DNA of 64,000 nt, taken from the NCBI GenBank assembly GCA_035294265.1, contig DATGLK010000010.1, positions 126,858-190,857 of the forward strand. Direction: 5' to 3'. Under the pieces are notes generated by a model, which saw only the letters and a program-made list of their open reading frames with translations, made no database searches and was not told the DNA's origin. A program made the translations under genes and the position numbers. Positions 10,002 through 56,043 of this stretch are shown here, piece by piece. Numbering within the stretch: the stretch's first letter is position 1; the number at the start of each line of letters is the position of its first letter. Source of the stretch: Candidatus Binataceae bacterium (GTDB lineage Bacteria > Desulfobacterota > Binatia > Binatales > Binataceae).

Positions 10002-10007
10002 CGTGCC

Positions 10008-17461: not shown

Positions 17462-17506
17462 CCGATGCTTCCTCGAGGTGGAAACTGTCCCGGGCTAAAG
17501 CGCCGG

Positions 17507-18805: not shown

Positions 18806-18897
18806 CTGGCTCCCTCCCACAGATTGTTCACCGAGCCCGCCAAACCCTGTCGGCCCGAGGGCTTAGATGCTCCGGCGCTTGGCAGCGGCAGTTCTGT

Positions 18898-20160: not shown

Positions 20161-20246
20161 CGCCAAGTCCTCCACTCGCTGCAGCCCGGAGTATCCGCCG
20201 GGCGCAAAATTCGACGTTTCGCTACATTGGCCGCCTGGCCCTCGCG

Positions 20247-35061: not shown

Positions 35062-35145
35062 AGCATGCTCCAGTCGCGAGTTGACGCAGTTCGCGCTTCC
35101 CGGCCAAGCGGCGGCGCGACTTGGGCGACGTTCAGGGAGGGACGA

Positions 35146-40600: not shown

Positions 40601-40848
40601 TCGGTCTCGCCCGCGGACTCAGCCTGGAGGAAGCCGTGCTGGAGGCTGGTGCCGTGCGCTTTCGCCCCATTGTGCTGACCGCTAGCGCGGCGGTGCTGGG
40701 CTCGATCGTAATTACGCTGGATCCGATCTTCTCGGGGCTGGCCTGGGCCTTTATCTTTGGGATTTTCGCTTCCACCGGCTTTACCCTGCTGGTGGTGCCA
40801 CTGATTTACTACCTCGTTTACGGCGAACCTCGTACAGATGTCCGGTAG
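37600..40848 (+). CDS. RND efflux permease (AcrB/CusA superfamily; subfamily not resolved)
   Basis: 1082-aa protein with 12 TM helices and two large periplasmic loops. Last gene of the OMF-MFP-RND operon. Confidence 0.8.
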   Translation: MATANDGPGFTARIVDLFLGSNLSLLLLVASLAAGVVALAVTPREEDPQISVPMADVIVQMPGASAAEVENLVTTNLEKRLWEMDGVSHIYSASQPGVAMVTVRFSVGYDRTKALVEIYNKLESNRDAVPTGVTGWIVKPVSIDDVPILSVTLYSAEVDDAMLRRIADEIMERMQEVPDTGRSFVVGGRPRQVRVLLDAQRLAAHNLSVQALQQALQGANTNLRVGSFARDDRQFVMDSGPFLRNAEEVASLVVGVSAGRPVYLRDVAQVIDGPAEATTYTNIGFGPARKLLFEEPGQLKLARLGERSAIYPAVTIAFAKRQGTNAVAVAQGLLAKIQALRPLMLPSNVGLLVTRNYGQTADEKVNELVRELLIAVAIIAVLLAFSLGAREALIVAIAVPVTLAVALLGNLLAGYTINRVTLFALILSLGLLVDDPIVDVENIHRHFKLREVPAREATLIAVDEVRPPTILATFTVIVAFIPMLFVGGMMGPYMRPMPFNVPLAMLMSLIVAFTITPWAAFHLLKHEYDTPPGDAAGEEGASIRRWYRRLLQPLLESRRRAWLFILGIGGAFVLSILLVIVGLVPVKMLPFDNKNELDLVIDMPQDTPLEATNAVTLDFERLLARVNEITDYEAYVGTNSPFDFNGMVRHYYLRQAPWQADIRIQLAPKSNRQQSSHEIALRLEPLVRAIARRDHVRLAKIIEVPPGPPVLASVVAEIYGPPYAEYTQLIEYGRQLKGVFANTAGLVSPDDFSITRAPRLKFVVDRQKAALNGITTAAVAQALAIALGGQSAGTIHAESERAPLLIEIRMARAARSSLQGLLALKLRGSAGQLVPLSELGEIEQTTDEQPIYHKDLRRVAMVMAGTAGISPVNEVLWLEGRTARMLPRGYSIVWTGEGEWHITVQVFRDLGVAFAAALFFIYILLVGQTGSMAMPLIIMAAIPLTLVGIMPGFFVLNLLTNHPVAGYSDPTFFTATAMIGMIALAGIVVRNSIILIDFIHLGLARGLSLEEAVLEAGAVRFRPIVLTASAAVLGSIVITLDPIFSGLAWAFIFGIFASTGFTLLVVPLIYYLVYGEPRTDVR

Positions 40849-41635
40849 GCGCGCATTAATCAGACCAGCTCCAGCCAAGCGCGAATCGCACGGCTTGGAA
40901 ATCGCCGATGCGGCGCGGCTCATCGTTGCGGGGGATGAAGCCTCGGCCGCAATTCAGGACCGGCTGTTCGAGCAGCTCGCAATCGTGGGTAAGGCGGTCG
41001 CCAGCAAGCAGCGGCTCAAACTGCTGGAGCTGCTGGCCCAAACCAATCGCACAGTTGAGGCGCTGGCCCGCGAAGCTAATCTGTCCGTGGCCAACGTGTC
41101 GCAGCATCTTCAAGTGCTGCGCGCCGCCGGCATCGTCGAAGCAAACCGAGCGGGCCTTTTCGTCTCGTACCGGTTGGCGGGTCCCGACGTGCTCGCATTA
41201 CTTACAGCTATTCGCTCAGTCGCCGAGAAGCGCCTGGGAGAGATCGATCGCTTGATGCGCTCTTACTTGGCCAATGCCGACGATCTTGAGCCGCTGACCA
41301 ATGCCCAATTGCTGCGAAGACTGCGTACCGGCGACATCATCGTCATCGACGTCAGGCCGGCGGAGGAATACGCCGCAGGCCACTTACCCGGAGCAATCTG
41401 CATGCCGCTCCCTGAGTTGAAGGAGCGCCTTAAGGAACTTCCAACCAACAAAGAGGTGATCGCCTATTGCCGCGGCCCCTACTGTCTGCTCGCACATCGC
41501 GCAGTTGCCCTGTTGCGCCACCGGGGCAGGCGAGCACGCCGTTTGCGCGAAGGATTTCCGCAGTGGCAGGCCGATGGCATGCCAGTCAACAGTGGGCTCG
41601 AACCCGCCGACGACCATAAACGGCCAACTCTCTGA
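40838..41635 (+). CDS. ArsR/SmtB-family HTH regulator fused to a rhodanese domain
   Basis: ArsR HTH (LKLLELLAQTNRTVEALAREANLSVANVSQHLQVLRAAGIV). Rhodanese active-site loop (AYCRGPYC). ATG overlaps the RND stop by 11 nt. Confidence 0.7.
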   Translation: MSGRRALIRPAPAKRESHGLEIADAARLIVAGDEASAAIQDRLFEQLAIVGKAVASKQRLKLLELLAQTNRTVEALAREANLSVANVSQHLQVLRAAGIVEANRAGLFVSYRLAGPDVLALLTAIRSVAEKRLGEIDRLMRSYLANADDLEPLTNAQLLRRLRTGDIIVIDVRPAEEYAAGHLPGAICMPLPELKERLKELPTNKEVIAYCRGPYCLLAHRAVALLRHRGRRARRLREGFPQWQADGMPVNSGLEPADDHKRPTL

Positions 41636-41639
41636 CGCT

Positions 41640-43094
41640 TCAGGGCTCGGCGGGCGGGGCGGAATTGCGCGCGGGAGGCTCGCCTGGAGGCGTCATGGTT
41701 TGCAGAAAATCCACGATCGCATCGACTTCCGACGGACTCAAGTTGCTGCCATAGGCGGGCATGTTACCACCGCCCTGCAGAATTTGACGAATCAGTTCGT
41801 TGCGCGTAAGCCGAGTGGCCACGTTGTCGAGCATCGGACCGCGTTTGCCGCCTTGACCGCCCAGCGCATGGCAGTTGCGACACTGTTTATCCTGGATGAG
41901 CAGCGCCCCCTGCAGTTGCAGCGGTGTGCGCCCCTTGACGTAATCCACAGGAGTTGGCACCGCGCTCCAGGCATCCATCACCGGCGACCAGGGCGAACTG
42001 AGGCCCAGCCAGGTCATCGTGGCAAAGAGCAGAAAGGCCAGAATCACGAAGACCACCGCGAAGGGGCGGCGGCGAAAGCTTTTTTCCCCAGTGCCGGAAT
42101 AAAATGGCAGGCCAATCAGAATGGCAATCAGCACCACCGGCCCGACCAGGATCAAAAAAGTCTCGGTCCAGGGCGGAAGTAGGGCGAAGAGGGCGAACAA
42201 CCACAGAAAAAAAATGTCAGGGCGGGGCACGGTTTCGATGATCGACGGATCGGGCCGCCCGTTGGGGCCAATCGGGCCGGCCAGCGCCGCCACAATCAGC
42301 AAAGCCAACACGATCAGCCCGGCAAAAATCAGATCTTTTTGCGCCGCCCAAGGAAAAAAGCTCTCGCCGTCGCGCTCCACCAGCTCGTGATATTCCCGGA
42401 GATAGGTCTCGCGCTTAACCACCCGACCCGGTACCGGCCACTCATTGATCCCTAGGCGCAAAACCAAAAACAAGTGCAGGCCGACAAAGCCCAGCAAGAT
42501 GCCGGGAATCACGAAAACGTGCAGGGCGAAGAAGCGCGACAACGTCTCGCCCGCGATAATCGGACCGCCCAGCAGCAGATGGACAAGACGCGGTCCAAGC
42601 AGCGGCACTCGTCCCATGATCGCGGCCGCGATGCCCAGTCCCCAGTAGGCGTCTTGGTCAAAGCGCAGCACCTGCCCGGTGAAGGCCATCCCCAGCGTGC
42701 ACAGCAGCAGAACCACGCCAGCCAGCCAGGTCAGCTCGCGCGGATACTTGTAAGCGCCGAATAGGAAGACCTGGATCAGATGGATGAACATCAGGGCCAC
42801 CATGAAATTAGAGCCCCAACCATGCAGCGCACGTAGGTACCAGCCCAGCGGCTCCTGGTAATTGAGATAAATCAAGCTGTTCCAGGCGCGGTCGGCGGCA
42901 GGTACGTAAACCGTGGCCAGGCAGATCCCGGTGACGATCTGCAGGATCAGTACGGTAAAGGTCGCGCTACCAAAGACATACCACCAACTGGCCGAGTTGC
43001 GCGGTACTCGATGGCGGGCGGCTTCCTCGATCGCCCCCGCCAGATGGGTACGTTCCTCGAGCCATCCGCCGATCGCTCTTAACCAGCGCTGCAT
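41640..43094 (-). CDS. qcrB: Cytochrome b of a bc-type complex with fused C-terminal mono-heme cytochrome c domain
   Basis: Cytochrome b fold with conserved heme-ligand His residues across 8+ TM helices. C-terminal CRNCH heme-c motif. Confidence 0.8.
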   Translation of the reverse strand: MQRWLRAIGGWLEERTHLAGAIEEAARHRVPRNSASWWYVFGSATFTVLILQIVTGICLATVYVPAADRAWNSLIYLNYQEPLGWYLRALHGWGSNFMVALMFIHLIQVFLFGAYKYPRELTWLAGVVLLLCTLGMAFTGQVLRFDQDAYWGLGIAAAIMGRVPLLGPRLVHLLLGGPIIAGETLSRFFALHVFVIPGILLGFVGLHLFLVLRLGINEWPVPGRVVKRETYLREYHELVERDGESFFPWAAQKDLIFAGLIVLALLIVAALAGPIGPNGRPDPSIIETVPRPDIFFLWLFALFALLPPWTETFLILVGPVVLIAILIGLPFYSGTGEKSFRRRPFAVVFVILAFLLFATMTWLGLSSPWSPVMDAWSAVPTPVDYVKGRTPLQLQGALLIQDKQCRNCHALGGQGGKRGPMLDNVATRLTRNELIRQILQGGGNMPAYGSNLSPSEVDAIVDFLQTMTPPGEPPARNSAPPAEP

Positions 43095-43109
43095 TCTCTC
43101 ATCCGTCCG

Positions 43110-43640
43110 CTAAACCTGAGTCTGACCCAAGGTGGGCAACTCGCCCGCACGCACCCAGAGCTGCCCATTGCTAATTTTGTAGGAATAGCGATAGAGCGGG
43201 CGCGGGGGCGGTCCCGAAGCCCGCCGGCCGTCGGCGTAATAGACTCCGCCATGACAGGGGCACATGAACAACTGGGATTCCTGGAACCAGCGCACCGGAC
43301 AGCCCAAATGGGTGCAATTGATGGCAAAGATTTGAAATTTATCCTGCGACAGGCGGCGCACCCAGCAGGGAATGTCAGCGGTGGAACCGTCCCAGGGTTT
43401 GACGAAGGGATTGCGATAGGTCGCCAGAAGGGTTTGGCCAAGGGGAAAATTCGTGACCGGCCCCAGCGCGATCCAGGTCAAGTAAGTGCGGCGCAAAGCC
43501 GGCGCCAGGAGATAACCCAGCACTGGAATGGCGAACAACAACGCAACGCCCGCGTTGAGCAGCGCCGCCAGCTTGAGCAACGCGCGTCGGGTGGGTTGTT
43601 CGTGCCGCTGGCCGTCGTGGGCCTGGGTCTCCTCACTCAT
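43110..43640 (-). CDS. qcrA: Rieske [2Fe-2S] iron-sulfur subunit of a bc-type complex
   Basis: CTHLGC ... CPCHGG boxes. N-terminal TM/Tat-like region (RRALLKLAALLNAG). ATG overlaps the upstream diheme cytochrome c stop (ATGA). Confidence 0.8.
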   Translation of the reverse strand: MSEETQAHDGQRHEQPTRRALLKLAALLNAGVALLFAIPVLGYLLAPALRRTYLTWIALGPVTNFPLGQTLLATYRNPFVKPWDGSTADIPCWVRRLSQDKFQIFAINCTHLGCPVRWFQESQLFMCPCHGGVYYADGRRASGPPPRPLYRYSYKISNGQLWVRAGELPTLGQTQV

Positions 43641-44368
43641 CTGCTGCTCCTGGAAAGTTGCGCGCCGACATCGCTGCTGCCTAGCGCTGGCGGCCGTTGG
43701 GCGGCCAGCCAAGTCACGATATCGGTGACTTGCGTCGCGTCGAGTGGATGGCCCGCTGAATAGCCGCGCCAATTAGGATGGCCCAAATCGGGACGCCCTG
43801 CCACGATAACGGCAGCCAAATGCCGGTCGCTGACCAGGGTCAGATAGTCGGGATTGACAATCGCGCCGGGAGTGGCGCCACCGCGCCCATCTGGTCCGTG
43901 GCAGGAGGCGCAAAAGGCGAGATAATCCTGGCGCCCTTGCCGCGGATTGCCTTCGGCGCCGGCGAAAACCGGCGCACCGACCGCCGAGCTACCTTGCCCC
44001 CACCGCTGGCTAATCCCCTCGACCAGAATAGCGATTTGGCGGTCAGTGAGCGTACCGCCGGCGGCAAGCGAAAACCCGGGCATCGCCGTTCCGGGCCGGC
44101 CGCGCGCGATTAAATCGCGCAGCACCGAGGTTCCGAGCCAATTCACCAGCACCGGATTGTCCAGCGCCATCGCCGCGCCGAAGCGGCCATCCACACCGTG
44201 ACATCCAGCGCAATTTTCGCCATAGAGCTGAGCGAAGTCGGAAACTGCGCTGGGCTGAACCGGCCGCTGGCTGGGACGCGGGCGGCCAGGCATCCCGTTG
44301 CACGCGCCCAACGCCAGCGCCCACAGCAGTGCCGCGATTCGCGAAACAACAGAGTAAGGATGGTTCAT
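43637..44368 (-). CDS. qcrC: Diheme cytochrome c (QcrC/cytochrome cc-like)
   Basis: Two CxxCH motifs (CAGCHG, CASCHG). Signal/lipobox-like N-terminus (LALGAC). Start taken at MNHPY. Confidence 0.65.
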   Translation of the reverse strand: MNHPYSVVSRIAALLWALALGACNGMPGRPRPSQRPVQPSAVSDFAQLYGENCAGCHGVDGRFGAAMALDNPVLVNWLGTSVLRDLIARGRPGTAMPGFSLAAGGTLTDRQIAILVEGISQRWGQGSSAVGAPVFAGAEGNPRQGRQDYLAFCASCHGPDGRGGATPGAIVNPDYLTLVSDRHLAAVIVAGRPDLGHPNWRGYSAGHPLDATQVTDIVTWLAAQRPPALGSSDVGAQLSRSSR

Positions 44369-45198
44369 CACTGCTGGGGCCCGCGCAAGCCCGGGGCCTC
44401 CAATCCGCTGCGAACCGCGAACGGCATGAATTGAAGCGTATGAATCCGTTCGGCGCGGGCCGTGACCAATCCCGCGGTTAGGCCAAAGCCGAATTGGCAG
44501 AGCACGAACCACCCCCAGTCGATGCGCTGATCGAGCACTGGGTTAATCACGCTCAGGCTGGCCCACAGAAAGCCGCTCCACATCAGCGGCGCGATAACCC
44601 CACCGAAGAGCACTGGTCGGCGCGGCAGCATCGGGAGCAGTACGCCGTAGAGCAGGCCAACCAGCAGCGAGACCAGGGCGTGAATCAGCGTGGCGATGAG
44701 CAGAATTTCCAGATTGAAACGCGCCAGCTCCGAGAACCTGGCGTTGGCCAGTCCGGGCATCACGCTGGCGGCCAGAATGTTGATCGGATACCAGAGGCTG
44801 CCGTAACGCGCCCAGCCGTACAGCCCTGCCATCACCGCCATGACCACTCCGCCAGCCAACCCGCCTTTGATTCCCGCCGAATATGGATAGATCTCTAGCG
44901 GGAGGACCGCGCGATTGCCCGCCTCGCCGATTTCCAGCCGCGCCGCCGCCGGATGCGGCTGCCAGGCAATCGCCGGCTGGCGTGGGAGTTCGATCGCCTC
45001 GCAATGCTCTTGCGGTATCACCTCGCGCGCCCAACCCACCGCCCCGGCAATCGCCAAGACCGCGCCCACCAGGCTCACACTCAAGTTGAGGACCAAACCA
45101 GCGAAAAGGAACGCCAGCCCCAGCGCCATGAGCATCGGCCAAGCGGTAGGCGCCGGCACCTCGATTGTTGGCTGGGTCTGTGCTTCTCGTTCGGCCAT
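44368..45198 (-). CDS. Polytopic membrane protein of unknown function inside the oxidase-bc cluster (possible caa3 assembly/accessory subunit)
   Basis: 277 aa with at least 6 predicted TM helices. No recognisable cofactor motifs. Position between ctaE and qcrC. Confidence 0.45.
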   Translation of the reverse strand: MAEREAQTQPTIEVPAPTAWPMLMALGLAFLFAGLVLNLSVSLVGAVLAIAGAVGWAREVIPQEHCEAIELPRQPAIAWQPHPAAARLEIGEAGNRAVLPLEIYPYSAGIKGGLAGGVVMAVMAGLYGWARYGSLWYPINILAASVMPGLANARFSELARFNLEILLIATLIHALVSLLVGLLYGVLLPMLPRRPVLFGGVIAPLMWSGFLWASLSVINPVLDQRIDWGWFVLCQFGFGLTAGLVTARAERIHTLQFMPFAVRSGLEAPGLRGPQQ

Positions 45199-45211
45199 CG
45201 CCTTGTCCCCT

Positions 45212-45814
45212 TCAGCGGCCCACCACGTAGACCGTAAGGAAGACCACCACCCATACGCAATCGACAAAATGCCAGTACCACGAGAGCATCTCGATCCGCT
45301 CAGCGTGGCGGCGCTCCACACTGCCGCGCAAGGTAAGCAGCAAGACGATGGCCAGACCAATCAGTCCCACGCTGACATGGAAAGCGTGCAAGCCGACCAG
45401 CGAATAATAGGTGGTGCCAAAGAGGTTGGTGTGGATGGTCAAGCCGTCGCGGTATATCAGCTCGTACCATTCACGCGCAGTGCCCAGGAGGAATTCCAAT
45501 CCCAACAACCAGGTTATCAACCACCACATTGCGAAGCGGTCGCGCGCACCGGCCCGCAAATTGCGCATCGCCAGCACGATCGTCAGGCTGCTCGAGAGCA
45601 GACAGATAGTGTTGACGATCGGTGGGCTGAGCACATCACGCGGATAGGGACCGGTCAGGCTTTTGCCGATATAAAACACATAGGCCGCAACGAAGATCGA
45701 GAAGAAGGCGCTCTCGGTCAGGATGAGGCAAAGCATCCCAACCCGCCCGCGCGCCGGACGCTCTGACTCGGTGAACGCGTACACCGCCATCGCTGGTGCC
45801 GCTGACACGCTCAT
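45212..45814 (-). CDS. ctaE: Cytochrome c oxidase subunit III
   Basis: COX III helix pattern (WWLITWLLGLEFLLGTAREW, GLHAFHVSVG, WYWHFVDCVW). ATGA overlap with the ctaD stop. Confidence 0.8.
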   Translation of the reverse strand: MSVSAAPAMAVYAFTESERPARGRVGMLCLILTESAFFSIFVAAYVFYIGKSLTGPYPRDVLSPPIVNTICLLSSSLTIVLAMRNLRAGARDRFAMWWLITWLLGLEFLLGTAREWYELIYRDGLTIHTNLFGTTYYSLVGLHAFHVSVGLIGLAIVLLLTLRGSVERRHAERIEMLSWYWHFVDCVWVVVFLTVYVVGR

Positions 45815-47490
45815 TCGTATCTCCAATCGGGGTCGTCGGGATGTTTCAAATCCCACAGTGGGCGGCGACTTTGAACCACCGGCAGCTGCGCGAAATTGTA
45901 TTCAGGCGGGGGCGAGCTGGTGGTCCATTCTAGGGTCCAGGCATCCCAGGGATCGTCGCCAGCCAGAGTCCCGTCGTACAACGAGTGGACAACATTAATC
46001 AGAAACAACAACACTGCCACGGCTTGAAAAGCCACGCCGATACTGGCGATCAAATTGAACAGCTCCAAGCCGCGGCCGGCCTGATAAATATAGATTCGCC
46101 GCGGCATCCCATACATCCCGGCCAGATGGAGCGGATCGAAGGTCAGATGGAAGCCGATCAGGAGCAGCCAGAAGTGCCATCGCCCCAGCCGCTCGCTTAG
46201 CATTCGCCCGGTCGCCTTGGGAAACCAATAGTAGATGGCGGCGAAGATCATGAAGAGGATTGCGCCGACCAGGACGTAATGGAAATGGGCGACGACAAAG
46301 TAGGTATCGGTAAGCTGCCAGTCGAAGGGCGCCACCGCCAGAATGATGCCGGTCAAGCCGGCGATCAGAAACTGAAAGAGAAAGCCCAGACAGAATAGCA
46401 TGGGCACCCGGAATCGCAGCTTACCGCCCCAGATCGTGGCCAGCCAATTGAAGATCTTAATCCCGGTTGGCACGGCGATGAGCATCGTCGAGGTGACGAA
46501 AAAAGCGTTGCCCGCCGGGCTCATCCCGACCGCGAACATATGGTGAGCCCACACCCCCAGGCTGATGAAGCCGATCGCGACCGAGGCCGCGACCATCGCC
46601 TGGTAACCGAAGATCACCTTGCGCGAGAAAACTGGGATTATCTCAGAGGCAAAGCCGAACGCGGGTAAGACCAGGATGTAAACCTCGGGGTGGCCGAAGA
46701 TCCAGAAGAAATGCTGCCAAAGCAGGGCCGAGCCACCGGCCTGAGTGTCGAAGAAATGCGCGCCCAAGTAGCGATCCAGCAGCAGCATCACTTGGGCCGC
46801 GGACAGCGGCGGCAACGCGACCAACATCAGGAAAGCGGTCACCAGGCTCAGCCAGACCAGCACGGGCATCTTGTTCAGACTCATTCCCTCGCAGCGCAGG
46901 CTCAAGGTGGTCGCGACGATGTTAATCGCGGCGGCCGTCGAGCCCACGCTGGTCAGGAAGATGCTCAGAATCCAGTAATCGGTACTGTTGCCGCGCGAAA
47001 ACGCACGCTCGGTCAGCGGCGCGTACGCAAACCAGCCTACGTTGGGCGCACTGCCCGCGCCGTACAGCCCTTCGGCACCCAGGTAGCTGAAATACAGCAG
47101 CAGCGCGCCGAACAACCACAACCAGAAGCCGAAGGCGTTAAGCCGGGGAAAGGCCATGTCCCGCGCGCCGATCATCAAGGGTAGCAGGTAGTTGATGAAG
47201 CCGATAAGAATCGGCATCCCCACCAGAAATACCATCGAGGTGCCGTGCATCGTCAACAGGCGATTGAAGACCGCGGGCGGGACCAGATGATTGTCGGGTA
47301 GCGCCAACTGCATACGCATCGTCGCCGCCTGCAATCCGGCGATCACGAAGAACAGCAGCCCCCCGCCGATATACATCAAGCCTAGCCGCTTATGATCGAC
47401 CGTCACCACCCATTGGTGGATACGCTCCAAGCGGGGCAAACGGACCGCCTCCGCCTCCAACGTCAGCGCGGGTTCGAAACTACCGGCCAT
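45811..47490 (-). CDS. ctaD: Cytochrome c oxidase subunit I (heme-copper oxidase catalytic subunit)
   Basis: 559 aa with 12 TM helices. Canonical His ligands (WFFGHPEVY, HHMF, VAHFHYVL). Confidence 0.9.
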   Translation of the reverse strand: MAGSFEPALTLEAEAVRLPRLERIHQWVVTVDHKRLGLMYIGGGLLFFVIAGLQAATMRMQLALPDNHLVPPAVFNRLLTMHGTSMVFLVGMPILIGFINYLLPLMIGARDMAFPRLNAFGFWLWLFGALLLYFSYLGAEGLYGAGSAPNVGWFAYAPLTERAFSRGNSTDYWILSIFLTSVGSTAAAINIVATTLSLRCEGMSLNKMPVLVWLSLVTAFLMLVALPPLSAAQVMLLLDRYLGAHFFDTQAGGSALLWQHFFWIFGHPEVYILVLPAFGFASEIIPVFSRKVIFGYQAMVAASVAIGFISLGVWAHHMFAVGMSPAGNAFFVTSTMLIAVPTGIKIFNWLATIWGGKLRFRVPMLFCLGFLFQFLIAGLTGIILAVAPFDWQLTDTYFVVAHFHYVLVGAILFMIFAAIYYWFPKATGRMLSERLGRWHFWLLLIGFHLTFDPLHLAGMYGMPRRIYIYQAGRGLELFNLIASIGVAFQAVAVLLFLINVVHSLYDGTLAGDDPWDAWTLEWTTSSPPPEYNFAQLPVVQSRRPLWDLKHPDDPDWRYE

Positions 47491-47505
47491 CGAGTTCTCT
47501 CCCCG

Positions 47506-48645
47506 CTAGCGCAGGCTCGCCAAGTAGGCGACCACCTGATTCAGATCGGCGGGCGACAGGTTCATCGCCGGCATTAGCACGTCGGGCTTGATGGTAGCTG
47601 GGTTGTCAACCCACACATGCAGATGGGCCGGGCTATTGAGCGCAGCGCCCGCGCCAATGGTGGCACGACTCATAAGGTGAGTCAGATCGGGACCAAAACG
47701 GCCATTGGCAACGGTGCCACGGATAGTATGGCAATTGACGCAGGCGGTGTGAAGGAACAGTTGGCGACCCGCCGCGGTACTGGCATCACGCAACGCCGGA
47801 CGCTGCTGCGCCGCCACCCACTGAGCGAACTGGGCGGGCGGCTGCGCGACCACCCGGATCAGCATCAACGCGTGCTCGCTGCCGCAAAACTCCCCGCATT
47901 GCCCCAGGTAGGTCCCCGCCCGATGGGGATCGATCCACATCTCATTGCGCCGATTGGGGATAACGTCGGTCTTGCCCGCCAACCGCGGCACCCAAAAGCT
48001 GTGCGCGACGTCAGCCGACTCCAAGGTCAGCAAGGTCGGCCGAGGATGGGCCGGATCGCTCACTGGAACGTGCAACTCGTTGGCCGTGACAATCCCCAGG
48101 CTGGGATAGCGAAATTCCCACCACCATTGATGGCCGATCACACGCACCCGCAACGCATCGGTCGGTTGCGGCGCCGCGTGCACGATGTAGATGGTGCGCC
48201 CGGTGATCAAAGTCAGCACAAACGCAATCAGCACCGGCAGCGTGGTCCAGGCAAGCTCGATCGGATTACTGCCGTAAACCTGGGGCGGCTCGCGACCGTC
48301 ATCGCCGGCGCGCTGGCGGTAGCGAATAATCGCGTAGCTCAGCAGGCCAGCCACCACCAGAAAGATTGCGCCGGTAATACTGAGTACGAAATAGGCCAGA
48401 TGCGCGATCGCCGCGGCCGGGGTCGCAACTGGCGCAAAGATGTTGTTGGGCATCAGCTTGGCGTTGGCGGCGCCGGTGCCCCAATCCTGGCCCCAGGCCA
48501 TCGCCACCCGCGCCAGGATGGTCATGCTCGCAAGCGCGGCGGCGGCCCGCCTTCCAAACCCACGCGCCGTCAAATCACGCTCCGCTGGCGCCCCGGATCC
48601 GCGCCCGGCTGTCGGGCCATTGCTCGCCGCGGTTGGAGGTCGCAC
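47506..48645 (-). CDS. ctaC: Cytochrome c oxidase subunit II with C-terminal cytochrome c domain (caa3-type); start uncertain
   Basis: CuA site (H...CGEFCGSEHALM). C-terminal CVNCH heme-c motif. The longest ORF starts at a GTG; an internal ATG (48525) is an alternative. Confidence 0.8.
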   Translation of the reverse strand: MRPPTAASNGPTAGRGSGAPAERDLTARGFGRRAAAALASMTILARVAMAWGQDWGTGAANAKLMPNNIFAPVATPAAAIAHLAYFVLSITGAIFLVVAGLLSYAIIRYRQRAGDDGREPPQVYGSNPIELAWTTLPVLIAFVLTLITGRTIYIVHAAPQPTDALRVRVIGHQWWWEFRYPSLGIVTANELHVPVSDPAHPRPTLLTLESADVAHSFWVPRLAGKTDVIPNRRNEMWIDPHRAGTYLGQCGEFCGSEHALMLIRVVAQPPAQFAQWVAAQQRPALRDASTAAGRQLFLHTACVNCHTIRGTVANGRFGPDLTHLMSRATIGAGAALNSPAHLHVWVDNPATIKPDVLMPAMNLSPADLNQVVAYLASLR

Positions 48646-48776: not shown

Positions 48777-49736
48777 TCAGGCCGCGAACATCTCTTCGGG
48801 CTCGTACAAGCGGCTCACCAGTCCCTGCTCGTAGGCATAATGCAGTCCCATCGCGATCGCCTTGCGATTATCGGGCACCTGCAGGCCGTATTCGTCGGGA
48901 AACAGGTCCAATTCGCGCAGCAAGCGGGCCGCTGTTCCCATGTGCTCGTGCTCCTCGCCGCGCTCGAACTGGGCGTGATAATGACGGCGTGCCTGTTGGC
49001 AAACGGCCAGGAGATCGCGGGCCAAGTCGGGATATTCGCGCAGCGCCGATTGCTTGAGTGTGATTAAGGTGTTGAGGGGAAAGACCCCGGTGGCTCGCAC
49101 ATAGGCGCGAATCTCGGCGTCGGGGTCGGCGAACAGGCGCGCGGTCTGTGCGGTGGGAGGTGGACCACCGCCAGCGGCGGCGATCGCATCGACCTCGCCG
49201 CGCTCCAGCGCCCTATGAGCGTTGGGCAGACCGCGCACCGGCCGCTCCACGATCGCGCTCTTTTCGATCCAATAACGGCGCGGCCGCGGGTACTCCAGCC
49301 CGCTCATGTCCTCGTGATCCTCCACCCAGTGAATGCGCTCGCACGCGATGTCGTACTGATGGGTCAGGATGCCGCGCAACCACATCGCGTAGTTGACCCC
49401 GAAGCTGACCATCCCAATTCGCTTGCCCACCAGGTCGGCGGGCGTGTGGATATTGGCGCTCTTGTGCACCATCAGGCCGTAATGAGGAAAGAAGCGGCTG
49501 GGGAAGGCCGCGATCGCGGTCAGCGGCTGGCCGCGGTCACGCGCAATGACGTAGTTGCTAAAGCTCTGCTCGGCGATATCGTGCGAGAGCTTGGTGATCA
49601 TATCGACGAACAACGGCCAGGGGGCGGGACCAATCTCGGAGAGCTCGAGCACGTCGGGCACCTTGACCGTGCCGTCGAGCAGGAAGCGAGTGTCGTAACG
49701 ACGGGCAAGGGGAAAACTAAGTTTCGTCATCGGCAT
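48777..49736 (-). CDS. 4,5-dihydroxyphthalate decarboxylase family protein (NMT1/THI5-like fold)
   Basis: Resembles Pht5/PhtD-type decarboxylases (TKLSFPLARRYDTRFLLDG, AAFPSRFFPH, NYAMWLRGIL, EEMFA). Assignment from memory, not searched. Confidence 0.55.
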   Translation of the reverse strand: MPMTKLSFPLARRYDTRFLLDGTVKVPDVLELSEIGPAPWPLFVDMITKLSHDIAEQSFSNYVIARDRGQPLTAIAAFPSRFFPHYGLMVHKSANIHTPADLVGKRIGMVSFGVNYAMWLRGILTHQYDIACERIHWVEDHEDMSGLEYPRPRRYWIEKSAIVERPVRGLPNAHRALERGEVDAIAAAGGGPPPTAQTARLFADPDAEIRAYVRATGVFPLNTLITLKQSALREYPDLARDLLAVCQQARRHYHAQFERGEEHEHMGTAARLLRELDLFPDEYGLQVPDNRKAIAMGLHYAYEQGLVSRLYEPEEMFAA

Positions 49737-49855
49737 ACTCCAAGTCGGGGCTAAGCGCCGTACCAGACAGTCATTTCTACTTACGCAGGAACCGGCGGCT
49801 TGGCAAATCCGTGGACCGTTGACACCTTGTCAGGCTTTGCACACAGTTGCACATC

Positions 49856-51382
49856 ATGCGCTACGGCTTCGTGATCGACCAGGAACGCTGCATCGGATGC
49901 CATGCCTGCACGGTGGCCTGCAAGGAAGAGCACAACGTCCCGGTGGGCGTGTTTCGGACCTGGGTCAAGTACATCGAGAAGGGAACTTTCCCCGCGGTAC
50001 AACGCCATTTCGGCGTGATGCGGTGCAATCACTGCGACAACGCGCCCTGTATAGAGATCTGTCCGACCAAGGCGCTCTTTCGCCGCGACAACGGTGTGGT
50101 CGATTTCGACTCGCAGCGCTGCATCGGCTGCAAAAGCTGCATGCAAGCCTGTCCCTACGACGCCCTCTATATTGATCCAGCAAGTCACACCGCCGCCAAG
50201 TGCAATTTCTGCGCTCATCGCCTGGAGCTCGATTTGGCGCCCGCCTGCGTCATCGTCTGTCCCACCCATGCGATTATCGCCGGTGATTTGGACGCGCCCG
50301 AAAGCGAGATCGGCCGCACCGTCGCCAGCCGCCAGGTGGTCAGCCGCAAGCCCGAAAAGGCCACCCAGCCCAAGCTTTTTTACATAGGGATCGACGGCGA
50401 CCTGCTCAACCCCGGCGCGCCCGCGGCGCAGCCTACTTACCTGTGGGCCGACAAACAAAAAGATGGAAATATCTACACTTTGTCGACTGACGAGGCGACG
50501 CTGCCGCCCGCCGGCTCGCGTGAAGTCTATAACGTCTCCCATCCAGCCCCCTGGGGCGCCAAAATCGCCGCCTACCTGTGGACCAAGTCGATCGCGGCGG
50601 GTGTCACGCTGGTGGCGGCCCTGCTGATGGGGCTTAAGGTCGCAGACCAGGCGCGGCTGTTTGGAATCGCCACCCCCGCGCTGGCCTTGGGATGGAGCGC
50701 GCTCACCGGATTGCTGCTTACCATCGACCTCAAGCGGCCCGAACGCTTTTATTTCCTGCTGACGAAATCGAATTTCAGATCCTGGCTGGTCCTGGGAGCT
50801 TATTTTTTGGGCGGTTACGGCCTGTGCGCCATGGCATGGCTGATTGTAGGGCTATTCGCTCTCGAACCTCCCGCTTGGCTGATCGGACTGACGGCGTTGA
50901 TGGCGATCGGCACTGCGGCTTATTCGGGCTTCCTGTTCGCTCAGGCCAAGGGGCGCGATTTGTGGCAATCGCCGCTTTTCCCCTGGCATCTGGTGATCCA
51001 GGCGCTGGTCGCGGGCGCCGCGATGCTCATCATGTTCGCGGTCGCCGTCGGTTCGGACCGCTTGCTGGGAGCATTGCAAGCCGTCCTGGCCACGGCGCTG
51101 GTGCTGGACCTGCTGATGGTTCTAACCGAAGTCTACGCCGTGCCGCATAACCAGGACGCGCGCCTCGCGGTAGATTTGTTGAAGAGCGGCACGCTGGCCA
51201 AGCGGTTTTGGGGCGGCGCAGCCGGTTTGGGCGTGGTTGTGCCGCTGTTTGCGATGGCGATGGGCGCGAGCTTCGGCGGCGCGGTAGTGGCCGCGCCGCT
51301 CGCCGCCGCTGCCGCGTTGGCCGGCCTGTGGCAATACGAATTACTGTGGCTGGCGGCCGGGCAGGCCGCACCCTTGAGCTAG
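49856..51382 (+). CDS. 4Fe-4S ferredoxin-type electron-transfer subunit fused to an NrfD/PsrC-like integral membrane anchor (CISM family)
   Basis: Four Cys clusters (CIGCHACTVAC, CNHCDNAPCIEICP, CIGCKSCMQACP, CNFCAHR...CVIVCP) followed by about 8 TM helices. No signal peptide. ATG at 49856 preferred over the ORF-finder TTG at 49847. Confidence 0.75.
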   Translation: MRYGFVIDQERCIGCHACTVACKEEHNVPVGVFRTWVKYIEKGTFPAVQRHFGVMRCNHCDNAPCIEICPTKALFRRDNGVVDFDSQRCIGCKSCMQACPYDALYIDPASHTAAKCNFCAHRLELDLAPACVIVCPTHAIIAGDLDAPESEIGRTVASRQVVSRKPEKATQPKLFYIGIDGDLLNPGAPAAQPTYLWADKQKDGNIYTLSTDEATLPPAGSREVYNVSHPAPWGAKIAAYLWTKSIAAGVTLVAALLMGLKVADQARLFGIATPALALGWSALTGLLLTIDLKRPERFYFLLTKSNFRSWLVLGAYFLGGYGLCAMAWLIVGLFALEPPAWLIGLTALMAIGTAAYSGFLFAQAKGRDLWQSPLFPWHLVIQALVAGAAMLIMFAVAVGSDRLLGALQAVLATALVLDLLMVLTEVYAVPHNQDARLAVDLLKSGTLAKRFWGGAAGLGVVVPLFAMAMGASFGGAVVAAPLAAAAALAGLWQYELLWLAAGQAAPLS

Positions 51383-51388
51383 GTGCCA

Positions 51389-54229
51389 ATGAAGACCAGC
51401 GACTATCCCGCGCCTCTCAATCCCGCAGTAAGCGATCTGGCGCCAGCCAACGAGTTGGCAAATTTTCCGCCCTCCTCGCGTTGGGAGGATTGGAGCGAAT
51501 ACGACCCCGCGAGTTGGCCGCGCAAGGTCAAGCGCGCCTACACCCTGGTGCCGACCATCTGTTTTAATTGCGAAGCCGGATGCGGCCTGCTGGCGTATGT
51601 CGATCCGGCGGCGATGAAGATCCGCAAGTTCGAGGGCAACCCCGAGCATCCCGGCAGCCGCGGCCGCAACTGCGCCAAGGGGCCGGCGACCCTTAACCAG
51701 GTCACCGATCCCGAGCGCATCCTGTATCCGATGCGCCGGGCGGGCGCACGCGGCACCGGCCAATGGGAGCGGGTCAGTTGGAATGAGGTGCTCGACGATC
51801 TGGCGGCGCGCATTCGCAGCGCACTGATCGAGAAGCGCCACAACGAAATCGTCTATCACGTTGGGCGGCCCGGCCATGAGCTGATTTACAACCAGCGCAT
51901 CCTTCATTCATGGGGGATCGACGGCCACAACAGCCACACCAATGTCTGCTCGGCGGGCGCGCGAACCGGTTACGCCTTCTGGCACGGTATCGATCGCCCT
52001 TCGCCCGATCATGCCAACGCCCGCTTTATCCTGCTGCTGAGCTCTCATCTGGAGGCCGGCCATTATTTCAATCCCCATGCCCAGCGGATTATCGAGGGCA
52101 AGCAGCGCGGCGCAAAGGTGTGCGTGATCGACACCCGGCTGTCCAACACCGCGGCCAAGGCCGATTACTGGCTGGCAACCTGGCCCGGCAGCGAGGCGGC
52201 GGTGCTGTTGGCAATGTGCCAGGTGCTGCTCAGCGAAGGGCTCTACGATCGCGACTTCGTGCGCCGCTGGGTCAATTGGGAAGAATTCATGCGCGAGGAG
52301 CGGCCCCATGTGCCGCCCACCTTCGACAATTTCATCGCCGAGATAAAGCAGCTTTACGCCGAATTCACCCCGGAATTCGCCGAGCGCGAATCGGGCGCGG
52401 CGGCGGCGACAATCGTCGCGGTGGCGCGCGAGATCGGCCGCGCCGGCTCCGCCTTCGCCACCCATGTCTGGCGCAACGCGGCGGCGGGAAACCTAGGCGG
52501 ATGGCAGGTGGCGCGGGCGCTGGAATTTCTGGTCGTGTTGGTGGGCGCGGTGGCCACTCCGGGCGGTACCCATCCGGCCGCAGCCAACAAATTCATCCCG
52601 ACGCCGCCGCTGATGCCGCCGCCGCCCAAAATCTGGAATGAAACGATGTGGCCGCGGGAGTTTCCTCTGGCCTTCTTCGAGATGAGCTTCCTGCTGCCCC
52701 ATTTCCTCAAAGATGGGCGCAGCAAGCTGGCGATATACTTCTCGCGCGCCTACAACCCGGTGTGGACCAATCCCGACGGCCTGTCCTGGATCGAGGCGCT
52801 CAGCGACGAAAGCAAGGTCGCACGCCACGCCTGCCTGACGCCGATTTGGAGCGAAACTGCCTGGTTTGCCGATTATGTCTTGCCGATGGGCCATGCCTCG
52901 GAGCGCCACGATCTGCTCAGCCAGGAGACTCATGCCGCGCGCTGGATCGGCTTTCGCCAGCCCGTCCTGCGCGTGGCCTTGGAACGCCAGGGCAAGCGCT
53001 TTCCCACCACTTGGGAAGCCCATCAGGCGGCCGGCCTGGGCCAGGTGTGGGAAGAGGACGAATTCTGGATCGAGCTGTCCTGGCGGATCGACCCCGACGG
53101 CGCCCTGGGCATCCGCCGCTACTTCGAGTCGCCCTACCAACCCGGAGTCAAGCTCACGCTGGATGACTACTATAGCTGGATCTTCGAGAACAGCGTCCCC
53201 GGCCTACCCCAAGCCGCGGCCAAGCAGGGACTGACGCCGCTTGGCTACATGCGCAAGTACGGCGCCTTTCTGGTCGAGGACCAGGTTTATAGCACCCACG
53301 AAACCGCGCCGGCCGCGCATGGCGAAACCGAGGTCGATCGAACCACCCGCATAGTCACCCAAGCCGGCACACCGATCGGCGTTGAGATCGACGGCGCGCG
53401 CCATGTCGGTTTTCCCACTCCCTCGCGCAAGCTGGAGTTTTATTCCAAGACGCTGAAGGACTGGAAGTGGCCCGAGTACTCGGTCCCGACCTACATCCGC
53501 AGCCATGTCCATTGGTCGCAGATCGATGCCGCAAAGGGCGAGATGCTGCTGCTGCCCACTTTTCGCCTGCCCACCCTCGTCCACACCCGCTCGGCCAACG
53601 CCAAGTGGTTATACGAAATTTCCCATAAAAACCCGCTGTGGCTGCATCCGCGCGACGCTATCCGCCTGGGTGTGCGCACCGGCCATCTGCTCAAGGTGCA
53701 AACCGAGATCGGCTATTTCGTCGATCGAGTGTGGGTCACCGAGGGTATCCGCCCCGGCGTCATTGCCTGTTCCCATCACCTCGGCCGTTGGCGGCTGGCA
53801 GCCGATAAGGGAGGCGAGCGCTGGGCCAGCGCGCTGGTGGATCTGAAGCAGGCCGAGCCTGGGCGCTGGCTGATGCGCCAAATAACGGGCATCCAGCCCT
53901 TTGCCAGCGCCGATCCTGATTCGCAGCGGGTGTGGTGGCAGGACGCCGGGGTCCATCAAAATCTGACCTTTCCAGTGCAGCCCGACCCCGTCAGCGGCCA
54001 ACACTGCTGGCATCAGAAGGTCGTGGTAACGCGACCCGCACCCGAGGACCGCTACGGCGATGTCTTCGTCGATACCGATCGCGCCCATGAAGTGTATCGG
54101 CGTTGGCTCAAGCTGGCGCGCCCGGCGCCCGGCCCCGACAACCTGCGCCGCCCCTTATGGCTGGCGCGGGTCTATCGGCCCGACGCTTCCGCCTTCGTGA
54201 TTCCAACAACCGGCAGCGAGGCCCCGTAG
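51389..54229 (+). CDS. Molybdopterin (bis-PGD, DMSO-reductase family) oxidoreductase catalytic subunit, no Tat signal
   Basis: N-terminal FS0 cluster motif (CFNCEAGCG...NCAKG). MopB domain. About 60-aa N-terminal extension without an RR motif. ATG with AGGTG ribosome-binding site, immediately after the Fe-S/NrfD gene stop. Confidence 0.8.
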   Translation: MKTSDYPAPLNPAVSDLAPANELANFPPSSRWEDWSEYDPASWPRKVKRAYTLVPTICFNCEAGCGLLAYVDPAAMKIRKFEGNPEHPGSRGRNCAKGPATLNQVTDPERILYPMRRAGARGTGQWERVSWNEVLDDLAARIRSALIEKRHNEIVYHVGRPGHELIYNQRILHSWGIDGHNSHTNVCSAGARTGYAFWHGIDRPSPDHANARFILLLSSHLEAGHYFNPHAQRIIEGKQRGAKVCVIDTRLSNTAAKADYWLATWPGSEAAVLLAMCQVLLSEGLYDRDFVRRWVNWEEFMREERPHVPPTFDNFIAEIKQLYAEFTPEFAERESGAAAATIVAVAREIGRAGSAFATHVWRNAAAGNLGGWQVARALEFLVVLVGAVATPGGTHPAAANKFIPTPPLMPPPPKIWNETMWPREFPLAFFEMSFLLPHFLKDGRSKLAIYFSRAYNPVWTNPDGLSWIEALSDESKVARHACLTPIWSETAWFADYVLPMGHASERHDLLSQETHAARWIGFRQPVLRVALERQGKRFPTTWEAHQAAGLGQVWEEDEFWIELSWRIDPDGALGIRRYFESPYQPGVKLTLDDYYSWIFENSVPGLPQAAAKQGLTPLGYMRKYGAFLVEDQVYSTHETAPAAHGETEVDRTTRIVTQAGTPIGVEIDGARHVGFPTPSRKLEFYSKTLKDWKWPEYSVPTYIRSHVHWSQIDAAKGEMLLLPTFRLPTLVHTRSANAKWLYEISHKNPLWLHPRDAIRLGVRTGHLLKVQTEIGYFVDRVWVTEGIRPGVIACSHHLGRWRLAADKGGERWASALVDLKQAEPGRWLMRQITGIQPFASADPDSQRVWWQDAGVHQNLTFPVQPDPVSGQHCWHQKVVVTRPAPEDRYGDVFVDTDRAHEVYRRWLKLARPAPGPDNLRRPLWLARVYRPDASAFVIPTTGSEAP

Positions 54230-54480
54230 CCTCAACTCTGCCGTTCTTAACCGAGCCGTGGCGCAGCCGGCGTGGAACTTATATCGGCCAGCCGCAATTG
54301 CACGGATGGGAGGAGGTTGGGTGAGGCGGCCGAGCTATCGGCGGGCTCGCTGATACCGGTCAGTTCTTCGACCGCTTCTTCGCCCACGGCCAGAACTGCG
54401 ACCGTTCCGAAAATCAAGATTGCTACAAGTAAGAAGGCGGCGCCGGCAGACAACTCGCCGGACATCAGATTGCGCCAAAA

Positions 54481-56043
54481 TTGCTTCATAACGCTGGCTA
54501 TCCCTGCCCTCAAAACTATCTCTTGCGCGCGGGACAGAAAACCCACCCCTTGGTGCGCGCTTCCCAGCTTGTGCCCGGCGGCGAAACGGAGCATGTAACG
54601 GAGACAGGCGCGCGGATTGCGGCCGTAGCCAGCGCGTTGGAAAGGGTCAACCTTACGGTGGAAGCGGGATCGACGCCGCGCGCGCAGCCGGCACATGATT
54701 ACCAAATCGCGGCACGCCTGGAGCGGCTGCCGATTGCCAGGTGGCATACCCGGGTCCGCTTGGTGGTGGGTTTTGCCTGGTTTTTCGACTCCTTCGATGC
54801 GCTGGCGATCGCTTACGTCTTGCCAGTGTTGGTGCCGCTATGGAAGCTCAACCCGGTTCAGATCAGTAGCCTTATCGCAATTGGTTATGCCGGCCAGGCA
54901 CTGGGCTCGGTCTATTTCGGTTATACGGCGGAGCGGCGTGGCCGGATTCCGGCCTTGCTGTGGTCGGTTGCGCTCTTTTCGGTCACCAGTCTGCTGTGTG
55001 CCGCGGTCTGGAGTTACACGTTACTGTTGACCATTCGCTTCGTGCAGGGCCTGGGGCTGGGCGGCGAAATCCCCGTTGGCCATTCCTACATGAACGAAAT
55101 CGCCAAGGCCAGTCAGCGCGGCCGCTTCATTTTGCTCTATCAACTATCGGCGCCGCTGGGCATCAGCGCGTCAGCCCTGGCCGGGGTCTGGATCGTTCCC
55201 AATCTGGGTTGGCAATGGATGTTCGTGCTGGGCGCGGTCCCGGCCCTGATTATGCTGCCCTTGATCGCGGGCTTGCCCGAATCACCCCGTTGGTTGGCCA
55301 GCCGCAGTCAAGTGGTCGAAGCCGACCGCGTGCTGAGCAAGATAGAAGCCGCGATTTCCGACCACGGCCTCCGCCCTTTGCCGCCGATTCCCGAGCGGGC
55401 GCCCGCGGTCGTAGCCGCCTCCACTCGCTTCAGCGATCTGCTCCGAGGGATATATCTGCGCCGCACGCTGGTGGTGTGGTCGATCTATTTCTGTACCTAC
55501 CTGGTAACTTACGGACTGACCGGCTGGCTGCCCACGATTTACCGGACGGTCTATCACCTATCGGTTCGCCAAGCACTCAATTTCAGTTTCATCACGACGC
55601 TGGTCTCGTTGGCGGGATCGCTGGCGGTCGCGCTTCTGATCGATCATACCGGCCGCAAGCCATGGATTAGCGCTGCCCTCATCCTGGGTGCGCTCCCGTT
55701 GTTCGTCCTCACCGGCAGCGCTTCGATGAGCGCAAACCGGGTGCTGATCCTGGTGGCGTTGGGACTGACAGGAGTGAACACGGTGGCGCTTGCGATGGGC
55801 ATGTACACGGCGGAAAACTACCCCACCCACTTGCGCTCGCTGGGTGGCGGCGTGGCCGCGGCATGGTTGCGCGTGGCCGCGATGATCGGTCCCTACGTGG
55901 TGGGATTTGTGCTGCCGGCGGCCGGGATGGGCGCGGTGTTCTCTGTCTTCGGCGGCTCGGCGTTGCTAGGTGGGCTTATCTGCATGCGGTTTGCGATCGA
56001 GACTCGCAACCGCGTGATGGAAGAGCTGGCGCCGGTAGTTTAG
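54481..56043 (+). CDS. MFS transporter (aromatic-acid/H+ symporter-like); start uncertain
   Basis: 12-TM MFS layout with motif A-like GRRGRIP. The ORF-finder start is TTG. The true start is probably an internal GTG around 54598-54658. Confidence 0.65.
   Translation: MLHNAGYPCPQNYLLRAGQKTHPLVRASQLVPGGETEHVTETGARIAAVASALERVNLTVEAGSTPRAQPAHDYQIAARLERLPIARWHTRVRLVVGFAWFFDSFDALAIAYVLPVLVPLWKLNPVQISSLIAIGYAGQALGSVYFGYTAERRGRIPALLWSVALFSVTSLLCAAVWSYTLLLTIRFVQGLGLGGEIPVGHSYMNEIAKASQRGRFILLYQLSAPLGISASALAGVWIVPNLGWQWMFVLGAVPALIMLPLIAGLPESPRWLASRSQVVEADRVLSKIEAAISDHGLRPLPPIPERAPAVVAASTRFSDLLRGIYLRRTLVVWSIYFCTYLVTYGLTGWLPTIYRTVYHLSVRQALNFSFITTLVSLAGSLAVALLIDHTGRKPWISAALILGALPLFVLTGSASMSANRVLILVALGLTGVNTVALAMGMYTAENYPTHLRSLGGGVAAAWLRVAAMIGPYVVGFVLPAAGMGAVFSVFGGSALLGGLICMRFAIETRNRVMEELAPVV

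Follow-up and report, generated by a model that had tools for sequence, protein, structure and literature searches.

The two genes described here lie on the forward strand of a 64,000-nucleotide (nt) stretch of DNA from a Candidatus Binataceae bacterium, which is referred to below as the window. The first gene (49856–51382) encodes a protein of 508 amino acids (aa) in which an iron–sulfur (Fe-S) subunit and an NrfD-type membrane anchor, here called B and C, occupy a single open reading frame (ORF), with Pfam matches to Fer4_11 (residues 54–144) and NrfD (residues 226–504, E-value 1.5e-26). The second gene (51389–54229) begins 7 nt past the end of this BC fusion and encodes MopB, the catalytic molybdoenzyme subunit (A). 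Database entries matching the two proteins at 100% identity come from a metagenome-assembled genome (MAG) of Candidatus Binataceae, and that of the BC fusion was named "NrfD/PsrC family molybdoenzyme membrane anchor subunit".

The Fe-S half of the BC fusion (residues 1–180; 49856–50395) was recognized as a four-cluster ferredoxin domain of the PsrB/NrfC type. Residues 2–178 aligned end to end with Thermus PsrB (2vpw_B, 1.7e-51), and cysteine was invariant at 16 positions across 103 BC-fusion homologs, which fits four [4Fe-4S] clusters. It is followed by a poorly conserved linker (residues ~181–225; 50396–50530), which was variable and gapped in two alignments and was modeled with a predicted local distance difference test (pLDDT) score below 50. 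The remainder (50531–51382) is an NrfD/PsrC-like domain. Hydropathy indicated eight transmembrane (TM) segments, and an AlphaFold model built from the 103 sequences showed eight helices within residues 236–504 at pLDDT ~85–98 (236–259, 266–291, 310–335, 340–363, 375–397, 401–427, 448–473, and 476–504). A phmmer search of the PDB with the NrfD domain alone gave no match, and a profile search of the PDB with the whole fusion was swamped by ferredoxins; the fold was settled by Foldseek, in which the Fe-S half of the model matched PsrB (46% identity) and the anchor half matched PsrC (2vpw_C, TMt 0.74) and ActC. These results place the anchor with the NrfD/PsrC kind, which is heme-free and has eight TM helices in two four-helix bundles. 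A first-pass annotation, made from the sequence alone, had proposed a four-cluster ferredoxin fused to an eight-TM NrfD/PsrC-like anchor, and the Pfam matches, invariant cysteines, AlphaFold model, and Foldseek results all agreed with it. A haloarchaeal BC fusion (locus L006, 6107–7930) is ~100 aa longer at 607 aa and carries an acidic linker insert between the Fe-S and NrfD domains, which holds a Cys-rich stretch, GGCACGGNCGCQ.

Above-cut-off Pfam matches to Molybdop_Fe4S4 (PF04879, residues 53–105), Molybdopterin (PF00384), and Molydop_binding (PF01568) assign MopB to the dimethyl sulfoxide reductase (MopB) family of complex iron–sulfur molybdoenzymes (CISMs), as the subunit predicted to bind the molybdenum or tungsten bis(pyranopterin guanine dinucleotide) (bisPGD) cofactor. 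Translated from the ATG at 51389, the protein is 946 aa long; the first-pass annotation had given the correct coordinates but a length of 948 aa, which needs the GTG at 51383. The FS0 [4Fe-4S] motif that it had reported, C58-x2-C61-x3-C65-x29-C95 (51560–51673), lies within the Molybdop_Fe4S4 match, and its four cysteines were invariant in 46 sequences. Cys187 (codon at 51947–51949) is the predicted protein ligand of Mo, as the "HTNVCSAG" segment around this invariant cysteine aligned with the region of the ArrA and Thermus PsrA structures that we take to hold the ligand cysteine. We rejected a formate dehydrogenase reading of MopB: those enzymes have selenocysteine or cysteine followed by histidine at the ligand position, and Cys187 is followed by serine.

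Neither subunit carries a twin-arginine translocation (Tat) signal, and neither ORF can be extended upstream to accommodate one. The BC fusion likely starts at the ATG at 49856, and the longest possible ORF is only three codons longer, so a signal peptide cannot fit. Matches to the NCBIfam TtrB and NrfC profiles begin at profile positions 43 and 37, and the signal-peptide part of those profiles is therefore missing from the fusion. An RR motif with a hydrophobic region after it was found in none of 120 MopB homologs, nor in the window MopB, and the first cluster cysteine was residue 12 in 114 of 120 BC-fusion homologs. Lacking a signal peptide, the Fe-S domain at the N-terminus would be expected to remain cytoplasmic, and its direct fusion to the anchor would place it on whichever membrane side the anchor N-terminus occupies. 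The distribution of lysine and arginine residues, on which the predicted N-in topology also draws, points the same way. In the window anchor, 13 such residues lie on the Fe-S side (loops 2–3, 4–5, and 6–7 plus the N-terminal flank) vs. 3 in the opposite loops. The BC fusions of Rhodococcus, Thermomicrobium, Natrinema, and a myxobacterial MAG had 10–12 vs. 0–2, and fused NrfD domains overall (five phyla) had 10–13 vs. 0–3. In contrast, NrfD proteins encoded beside Tat-bearing relatives lacked a strong bias toward the Fe-S side (2–8 vs. 3–5), the bias being weak, absent, or reversed. In a review of NrfD proteins, the SoeABC complex is described as facing the N-side with an inverted anchor, while the other NrfD complexes discussed have P-side peripheral subunits (PMC8076601). 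Because the missing signal peptide, the fusion, the charge bias, and this review agree, an inward-facing complex with the Fe-S domain in the cytoplasm is well supported by the sequences. The first-pass annotation had argued from two Tat-less subunits for an enzyme that faces inward, is coupled to quinone, and acts on a substrate in the cytoplasm, and this part of its account held up; the cryptic Tat signal that it had named as contrary to its reading was not found.

The MopB search returned >8000 homologous proteins, with 74–92% identity among the top 120 listed, and BC-fusion homologs showed 57–87% identity among the top matches listed. In a scan of one genome per species, the module was present in at least 600 species. 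Gene neighborhoods were compared in 82 related loci. The best 80 loci of the scan (65–78% identity) spanned Binatia, Acidobacteriota/Terriglobales, Rokubacteria/Methylomirabilota, Chloroflexota, Planctomycetota, Nitrospinota, and others. A tblastn search against plasmids added the cultured carriers Thermomicrobium roseum (63%), Rhodococcus jostii RHA1 on pRHL3 (58%), and several haloarchaea (52–55%). The BC fusion lay directly 5′ of the MopB gene in 77–78 of the 82 loci, and the remaining loci may be truncated contigs. Apart from this pair, no gene was kept in more than about one-fifth of the loci. As the BC-A pair alone is constant, it is a self-contained module, and the aromatic-catabolic neighborhood of the window is not part of it. 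The high conservation of MopB across phyla suggests a single constrained substrate; similarly low diversity has been noted for the cytoplasmic bSreA/SoeA lineage (Wells et al. 2023). Two candidate partners were rejected. A CMD/AhpD-like gene, considered as a constant third subunit, was found in only three of the 82 loci and in RHA1 and is absent from the window. An NMT1-type binding protein occurred in seven to eight loci, all Binatia-type, and the "NMT1" match of the window is really a PhtD-like decarboxylase. A gene for an Mrp/NBP35 Fe-S carrier lies directly 3′ of MopB in R. jostii RHA1 (L004, 11841–13010) and Natrinema halophilum (L006, 10966–12126), where its product may be a dedicated maturation factor; no such gene was present in the window or in the 82 MAG loci.

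The genes that recur near the pair belong to sulfur metabolism: persulfide dioxygenase (PDO)–rhodanese, TauE, YeeE, FccAB, SoxYZ, TusA/DsrE, and sulfur-type regulators. At least one sulfur-type gene was found near the pair in 30 of the 82 loci, and a gene of the TauE ("sulfite exporter") family lay immediately 5′ of it in 17. In four Rokubacteria loci (L051, L058, L065, and L045, ~3000–13700; 72–75% identity), the module belongs to a series of genes that share one direction and are for the most part closely spaced: PDO-rhodanese, YeeE, FccB, cytochrome c, TauE, the BC fusion, MopB, SoxY, and a SoxZ-like ORF. This series looks like a complete sulfide-to-sulfate route. The pRHL3 cluster of R. 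jostii RHA1 contains two ArsR-family regulators, three MBL-fold (persulfide-dioxygenase-like) genes, and DUF202 genes, with DsrE-like and TusA genes directly upstream of the module and co-directional with it, followed by the BC fusion, MopB, Mrp/NBP35, trxA (thioredoxin), and CMD. A more distant myxococcotal homolog (representative P0245, 44% identity) is preceded by a sigma-54 activator, a Lactamase_B–rhodanese gene, and two Sulf_transp genes, and in T. roseum a CsoR/RcnR-family (Trns_repr_metal) repressor lies directly 5′ of the module. In the window, a gene for an ArsR–rhodanese fusion regulator (40838–41635, forward strand; Pfam HTH_5 and Rhodanese) lies 8 kb upstream. Its product is 50% identical to RHA1_RS43815, which is encoded inside the Rhodococcus sulfur cluster with the orthologous BC-A pair, and a 55% homolog lies directly 5′ of BC-MopB-CMD in locus L010; linkage to the module was found in none of the other 80 loci. 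We tentatively regard it as a regulator of the module or of sulfur stress, and it may sense persulfide or sulfite.

A MopB family profile gave 53 matches in the PDB, the best being ArrA (2e-45) and PsrA (2.5e-44). No NCBIfam cut-off was reached: PhsA scored best (197 bits vs. a cut-off of 694), ArrA scored 124 vs. 1600 and TtrA 88 vs. 1750, and the BC fusion scored 191 against 416 for TtrB. Tight clustering with characterized Ttr, Psr, or Nar enzymes, which the first-pass annotation had named as contrary to its reading, was not seen, these equivalog scores being far below the cut-offs. Among representatives clustered at 50% identity, the family was compact: scores fell sharply outside it, from 1200 bits (58% identity) for P0241 and 786 bits for P0245 to ~280–410 bits for other full-length proteins at 33–37%, with only a few further representatives, including the Tat-bearing P0247, at 46–48% over the matched stretch. 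The nearest full-length outgroups (P0247, P0293, and P0275) differ from the module in carrying twin-arginine signals, and in the P0247 and P0275 loci B and C are unfused, in the order FeS, NrfD, MopB. The P0247 locus (L097, 2169–8720; also L007 and L091) encodes a cytochrome c, FeS, NrfD, a MopB of ~1115 aa and, absent from our module, a TorD/NarJ chaperone and a polyferredoxin. P0247 is otherwise close to the window MopB, with 40% identity over residues 23–931, the same B-C-A gene order, and shared N-terminal "(F/Y)PP..W" and C-terminal "SGxHCWHQKV...RPAPGP" motifs. These findings suggest that a single clade holds two sister arrangements, the fused form facing inward and an unfused form facing outward.

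The reading that we prefer, at slightly better than even confidence, is that the module is a SoeABC-like, cytoplasm-facing sulfite:quinone oxidoreductase with fused B and C subunits, with its substrate taken from gene context. MopB, with Mo-bisPGD on Cys187 and the FS0 cluster, would oxidize an inorganic sulfur oxyanion in the cytoplasm, the likeliest reaction being the conversion of sulfite to sulfate. Electrons would pass from the Mo center through FS0 and the four clusters of the Fe-S domain to a quinone on the cytoplasmic side of the anchor. Of these elements, we infer the substrate, which way the electrons flow, and where the quinone binds, next to the observed domains, motifs, missing signals, charge bias, conservation, and neighborhoods. 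The quinol would be re-oxidized by the ordinary respiratory chain, for which the window has a bc/aa3 operon next door. As sulfite oxidation and quinone reduction would share one side of the membrane, this step would probably be electroneutral, with energy conserved downstream. The role of such an enzyme would be to remove or exploit intracellular sulfite arising from persulfide dioxygenases, organosulfonate cleavage, or cysteine catabolism.

Several observations weigh against a SoeABC-like sulfite oxidoreductase. No sulfur neighbor was found in 52 of the 82 loci, and in the window itself no sulfur-oxidation gene lies beside the pair, the only hint being the ArsR–rhodanese gene 8 kb away. Where sulfur genes do occur, thiosulfate or sulfane sulfur would suit the PDO-rhodanese, YeeE, and TusA/DsrE contexts no less than sulfite would. 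The nearest full-length outgroups are uncharacterized, Tat-exported enzymes, and the AlphaFold model of MopB was poor (pLDDT 57.5, from a shallow alignment at 74–92% identity), such that the active site is not readable from it. SoeABC also differs in its genes, which encode three subunits in the order A-B-C, whereas here B and C form one polypeptide in the order BC-A. The proposed likeness to SoeABC lies in function and orientation. The Joint Genome Institute names the MopB family by COG and not by the KEGG soeA term, a weak hint that the family falls outside the KEGG soeA group. SoeA was not among the PDB matches and has no NCBIfam model. The best 150 representatives contained no Tat-less, unfused protein of ~950 aa, and SoeA must therefore either belong to the 50% clusters of the family itself or share less than ~30% identity with it. 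A tblastn search of plasmids for SoeA-type proteins returned only other MopB types: ~710-aa MopB proteins encoded with a ferredoxin and an FAD oxidoreductase in Thioclava, Agrobacterium, and Methylophaga, a 732-aa protein in Caballeronia, a 1142-aa fusion in Phaeobacter, and unannotated matches in Ralstonia and Bradyrhizobium. In the literature searched, we found no description of a fused SoeBC or of an inward-facing NrfC–NrfD fusion.

A more specific proposal, which we put forward tentatively and rate well short of an even chance, is that the module is not a SoeA ortholog but a separate lineage that turned cytoplasm-facing independently, its ancestor having been Tat-exported, of the P0247 type, and B-C-A in gene order. 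Both signal peptides would have been lost, the Fe-S subunit fused to the N-terminus of the anchor, and the charge bias of the anchor reversed. It would then be the main, as yet unrecognized, route of sulfite or sulfur-compound oxidation in abundant uncultured soil phyla (Binatia, Acidobacteriota, and Rokubacteria), actinobacteria, and haloarchaea.

The alternative that fares best keeps the same inward-facing, quinone-linked enzyme and gives it another sulfur substrate, such as thiosulfate, tetrathionate, or polysulfide/persulfide delivered by TusA, DsrE, or rhodanese, either oxidized or reduced by quinol. We regard this as unlikely, though a serious contender. The TusA and DsrE-like genes directly upstream of the module in RHA1 would suit it, as would the YeeE/Sulf_transp, PDO-rhodanese, and SoxYZ neighbors elsewhere, and the thiosulfate reductase PhsA was the best NCBIfam match with PsrA among the top PDB matches; the PhsA score, however, was far below its cut-off, and the commonest immediate neighbor, TauE, belongs to a sulfite or sulfonate exporter family. 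The reduction of thiosulfate by quinol is endergonic, and Salmonella needs for it an outward-facing arrangement that uses the proton motive force, which an inward-facing enzyme would not have. In general, the substrates of CISMs cannot be read from sequence (PMC12998232).

Considerably less probable is a cytoplasm-facing oxidoreductase that serves to detoxify an oxyanion other than one of sulfur, such as arsenite, arsenate, selenite, tellurite, or nitrate. ArrA was the top PDB match of MopB, and ArsR-family regulators lie nearby in RHA1, in L010, and in the window, but these ArsR proteins come with rhodanese and PDO genes, either as fusions or as neighbors, pointing to sulfur sensing. No ars, arr, or arx genes were found in any family locus examined, and the single Arx-like cluster (Azoarcus KH32C) was 31.7% identical, unfused, and accompanied by a TorD chaperone.

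The first-pass annotation had favored an aromatic substrate, proposing an oxygen-independent hydroxylase or transhydroxylase of a hydroxy-aromatic compound that feeds neighboring decarboxylases and a LigB dioxygenase. The neighbors are as it named them. The divergent gene upstream matches 4,5-dihydroxyphthalate decarboxylase (9jp7_A, 1.2e-21; PhtD-like), and 3′ of MopB come, in order, genes for an MFS transporter, an Amidohydro_2 protein, LigB, a second Amidohydro_2 protein, and an esterase. Homologs of the window's Amidohydro_2 or LigB genes also recur near the pair in ~10 of the 82 loci, mostly Binatia-type, and known aromatic-acting MopB enzymes are likewise Tat-less. However, a gap of ~250–450 nt follows the MopB stop codon, its width depending on the true start of the MFS transporter gene, and contains a possible small ORF (54250–54490, reverse strand, ~80 aa, one hydrophobic segment, MKQFWRNLMSGELSAGAAFLLVAILIFGTVAVLAV...) convergent with MopB. 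With this gap and possible ORF, the module looks separate from the MFS and ring-cleavage genes. The 64-kb window holds five Amidohydro_2 genes and four LigXa-type Rieske oxygenase genes, one such gene per ~10 kb, and adjacency of one of them to the module is therefore expected by chance. The aromatic role is very improbable: its neighborhood is not kept beyond close relatives while sulfur genes recur instead; the large subunit of pyrogallol transhydroxylase (4v4c_A) was the last of the 53 PDB matches (2.4e-5, 25 bits, residues 237–371 only), with ethylbenzene dehydrogenase (1e-23) far behind ArrA and PsrA; a Cys ligand of Mo together with an FS0 cluster is typical of the sulfur/arsenic clade; and 53–63% identity in haloarchaea, Thermomicrobium, and Rhodococcus sulfur clusters makes a Binatia-specific aromatic pathway unlikely.

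Upstream of the BC fusion, the TTGACA hexamer at 49819–49824 (forward strand) that the first-pass annotation had likened to a −35 element is present as described. It is followed by a 17-nt spacer, CACAGT as the best −10 candidate, and the ATG 8 nt further on, with no Shine–Dalgarno sequence (49819–49858). If TTGACA/CACAGT were a promoter, one could speculate that it would give an almost leaderless mRNA. A promoter scan of 49600–54700 found no sigma-70-like site, and no −10 element paired with the hexamer passed it; TTGACA was consequently rejected as a promoter and is listed as a lone hexamer rather than a demonstrated element.

Other parts of the window were noted in passing. A respiratory operon in a bc-aa3 arrangement adjoins the molybdoenzyme genes on the reverse strand (41640–48645). 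It comprises a 484-aa protein that joins cytochrome b to a c-type cytochrome domain, a Rieske protein, a diheme cytochrome c, a 330-aa ORF without a Pfam match, and then COX3, COX1, and COX2 with a fused cytochrome c. An OEP/HlyD/AcrB efflux operon (35065–40848, forward strand) ends right at the ArsR–rhodanese gene, and two adjacent 1041-aa RND-type ORFs lie at 3764–10001 (reverse strand). A second molybdoenzyme, of the sulfite-oxidase fold (15181–16170, forward strand; Pfam Oxidored_molyb), has a clear twin-arginine signal, LTRRRFLIATAG, and may be either a sulfite dehydrogenase of the periplasm or an enzyme similar to MsrP. Aromatic-catabolic genes are generally plentiful in the window; four paralogs of the LigXa-like Rieske oxygenase type (417–467 aa each) lie in tandem at 16208–21506 on the reverse strand beside Amidohydro_2 and enoyl-CoA hydratase genes.

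If the sulfite assignment is correct, aerobic soil bacteria would have a major sink for cytoplasmic sulfite in this module, which occurs in at least 600 species and in thousands of soil metagenome clusters. It is currently labeled only "molybdopterin-dependent oxidoreductase", and metagenome surveys for soeABC, sorAB, or sox would miss it. This would not be new chemistry, and the aromatic-hydroxylase idea is unlikely. The clade also offers a natural experiment in topology, in which the same Fe-S/NrfD module occurs outward-facing as two proteins and inward-facing as one fusion, with a charge bias that differs to match; this contrast bears on the question of energy conservation by NrfD modules. 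Among the hosts, R. jostii RHA1, T. roseum, and Natrinema are in culture and partly tractable.

Compared with known systems, pyrogallol–phloroglucinol transhydroxylase and resorcinol hydroxylase resemble the module in having a cytoplasmic, Tat-less MopB with a ferredoxin-like small subunit, and BthL matches the Fe-S domain (3.7e-20). The transhydroxylase differs in its large subunit, placed at the bottom of the PDB matches, and it has no NrfD anchor and a Ser rather than a Cys ligand. ArrAB/ArxAB provide the top PDB match for MopB and the second for the Fe-S domain, but they are periplasmic, have TorD chaperones, and occur in arsenic gene contexts. PsrABC/PhsABC (Thermus thermophilus, 2VPW; Salmonella) are the best or second-best solved relatives of all three parts, with the same cofactors and Cys ligand, but are Tat-exported, periplasm-facing complexes of three separate subunits with an A subunit of ~760 aa. 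ActB of Alternative complex III is a precedent for fusion in the CISM/NrfD family, and its partner ActC matches the NrfD domain structurally; its fusion, however, joins A and B rather than B and C, it has lost the Mo cofactor, and it faces the periplasm. SoeABC (Allochromatium vinosum Alvin_2491–2489; Aquifex aeolicus; Ruegeria pomeroyi) shares with the module a Cys-ligated MopB subunit that carries FS0, an Fe-S protein of four clusters, an eight-TM NrfD anchor, and the lack of Tat signals. SoeABC is linked to cytoplasmic sulfite production and SoxYZ, and the sulfur genes near the module in RHA1, Myxococcota, Rokubacteria, and 30 of the 82 loci, though not beside the pair in the window, may reflect a similar link. 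SoeA, at ~109 kDa, is similar in size to the 946-aa MopB, and SoeABC and SoxYZ are reportedly linked in sulfite oxidation. The peripheral subunits of SoeABC are thought to face the cytoplasm on an inverted NrfD (PMC8076601; PMC4378227), as we propose for the fused complex. The two differ in host range: SoeC has been reported from Proteobacteria, Aquificae, and a few Clostridia (PMC8076601), whereas the module occurs in Binatia, Acidobacteriota, Methylomirabilota, Chloroflexota, Actinomycetota, and Halobacteria.

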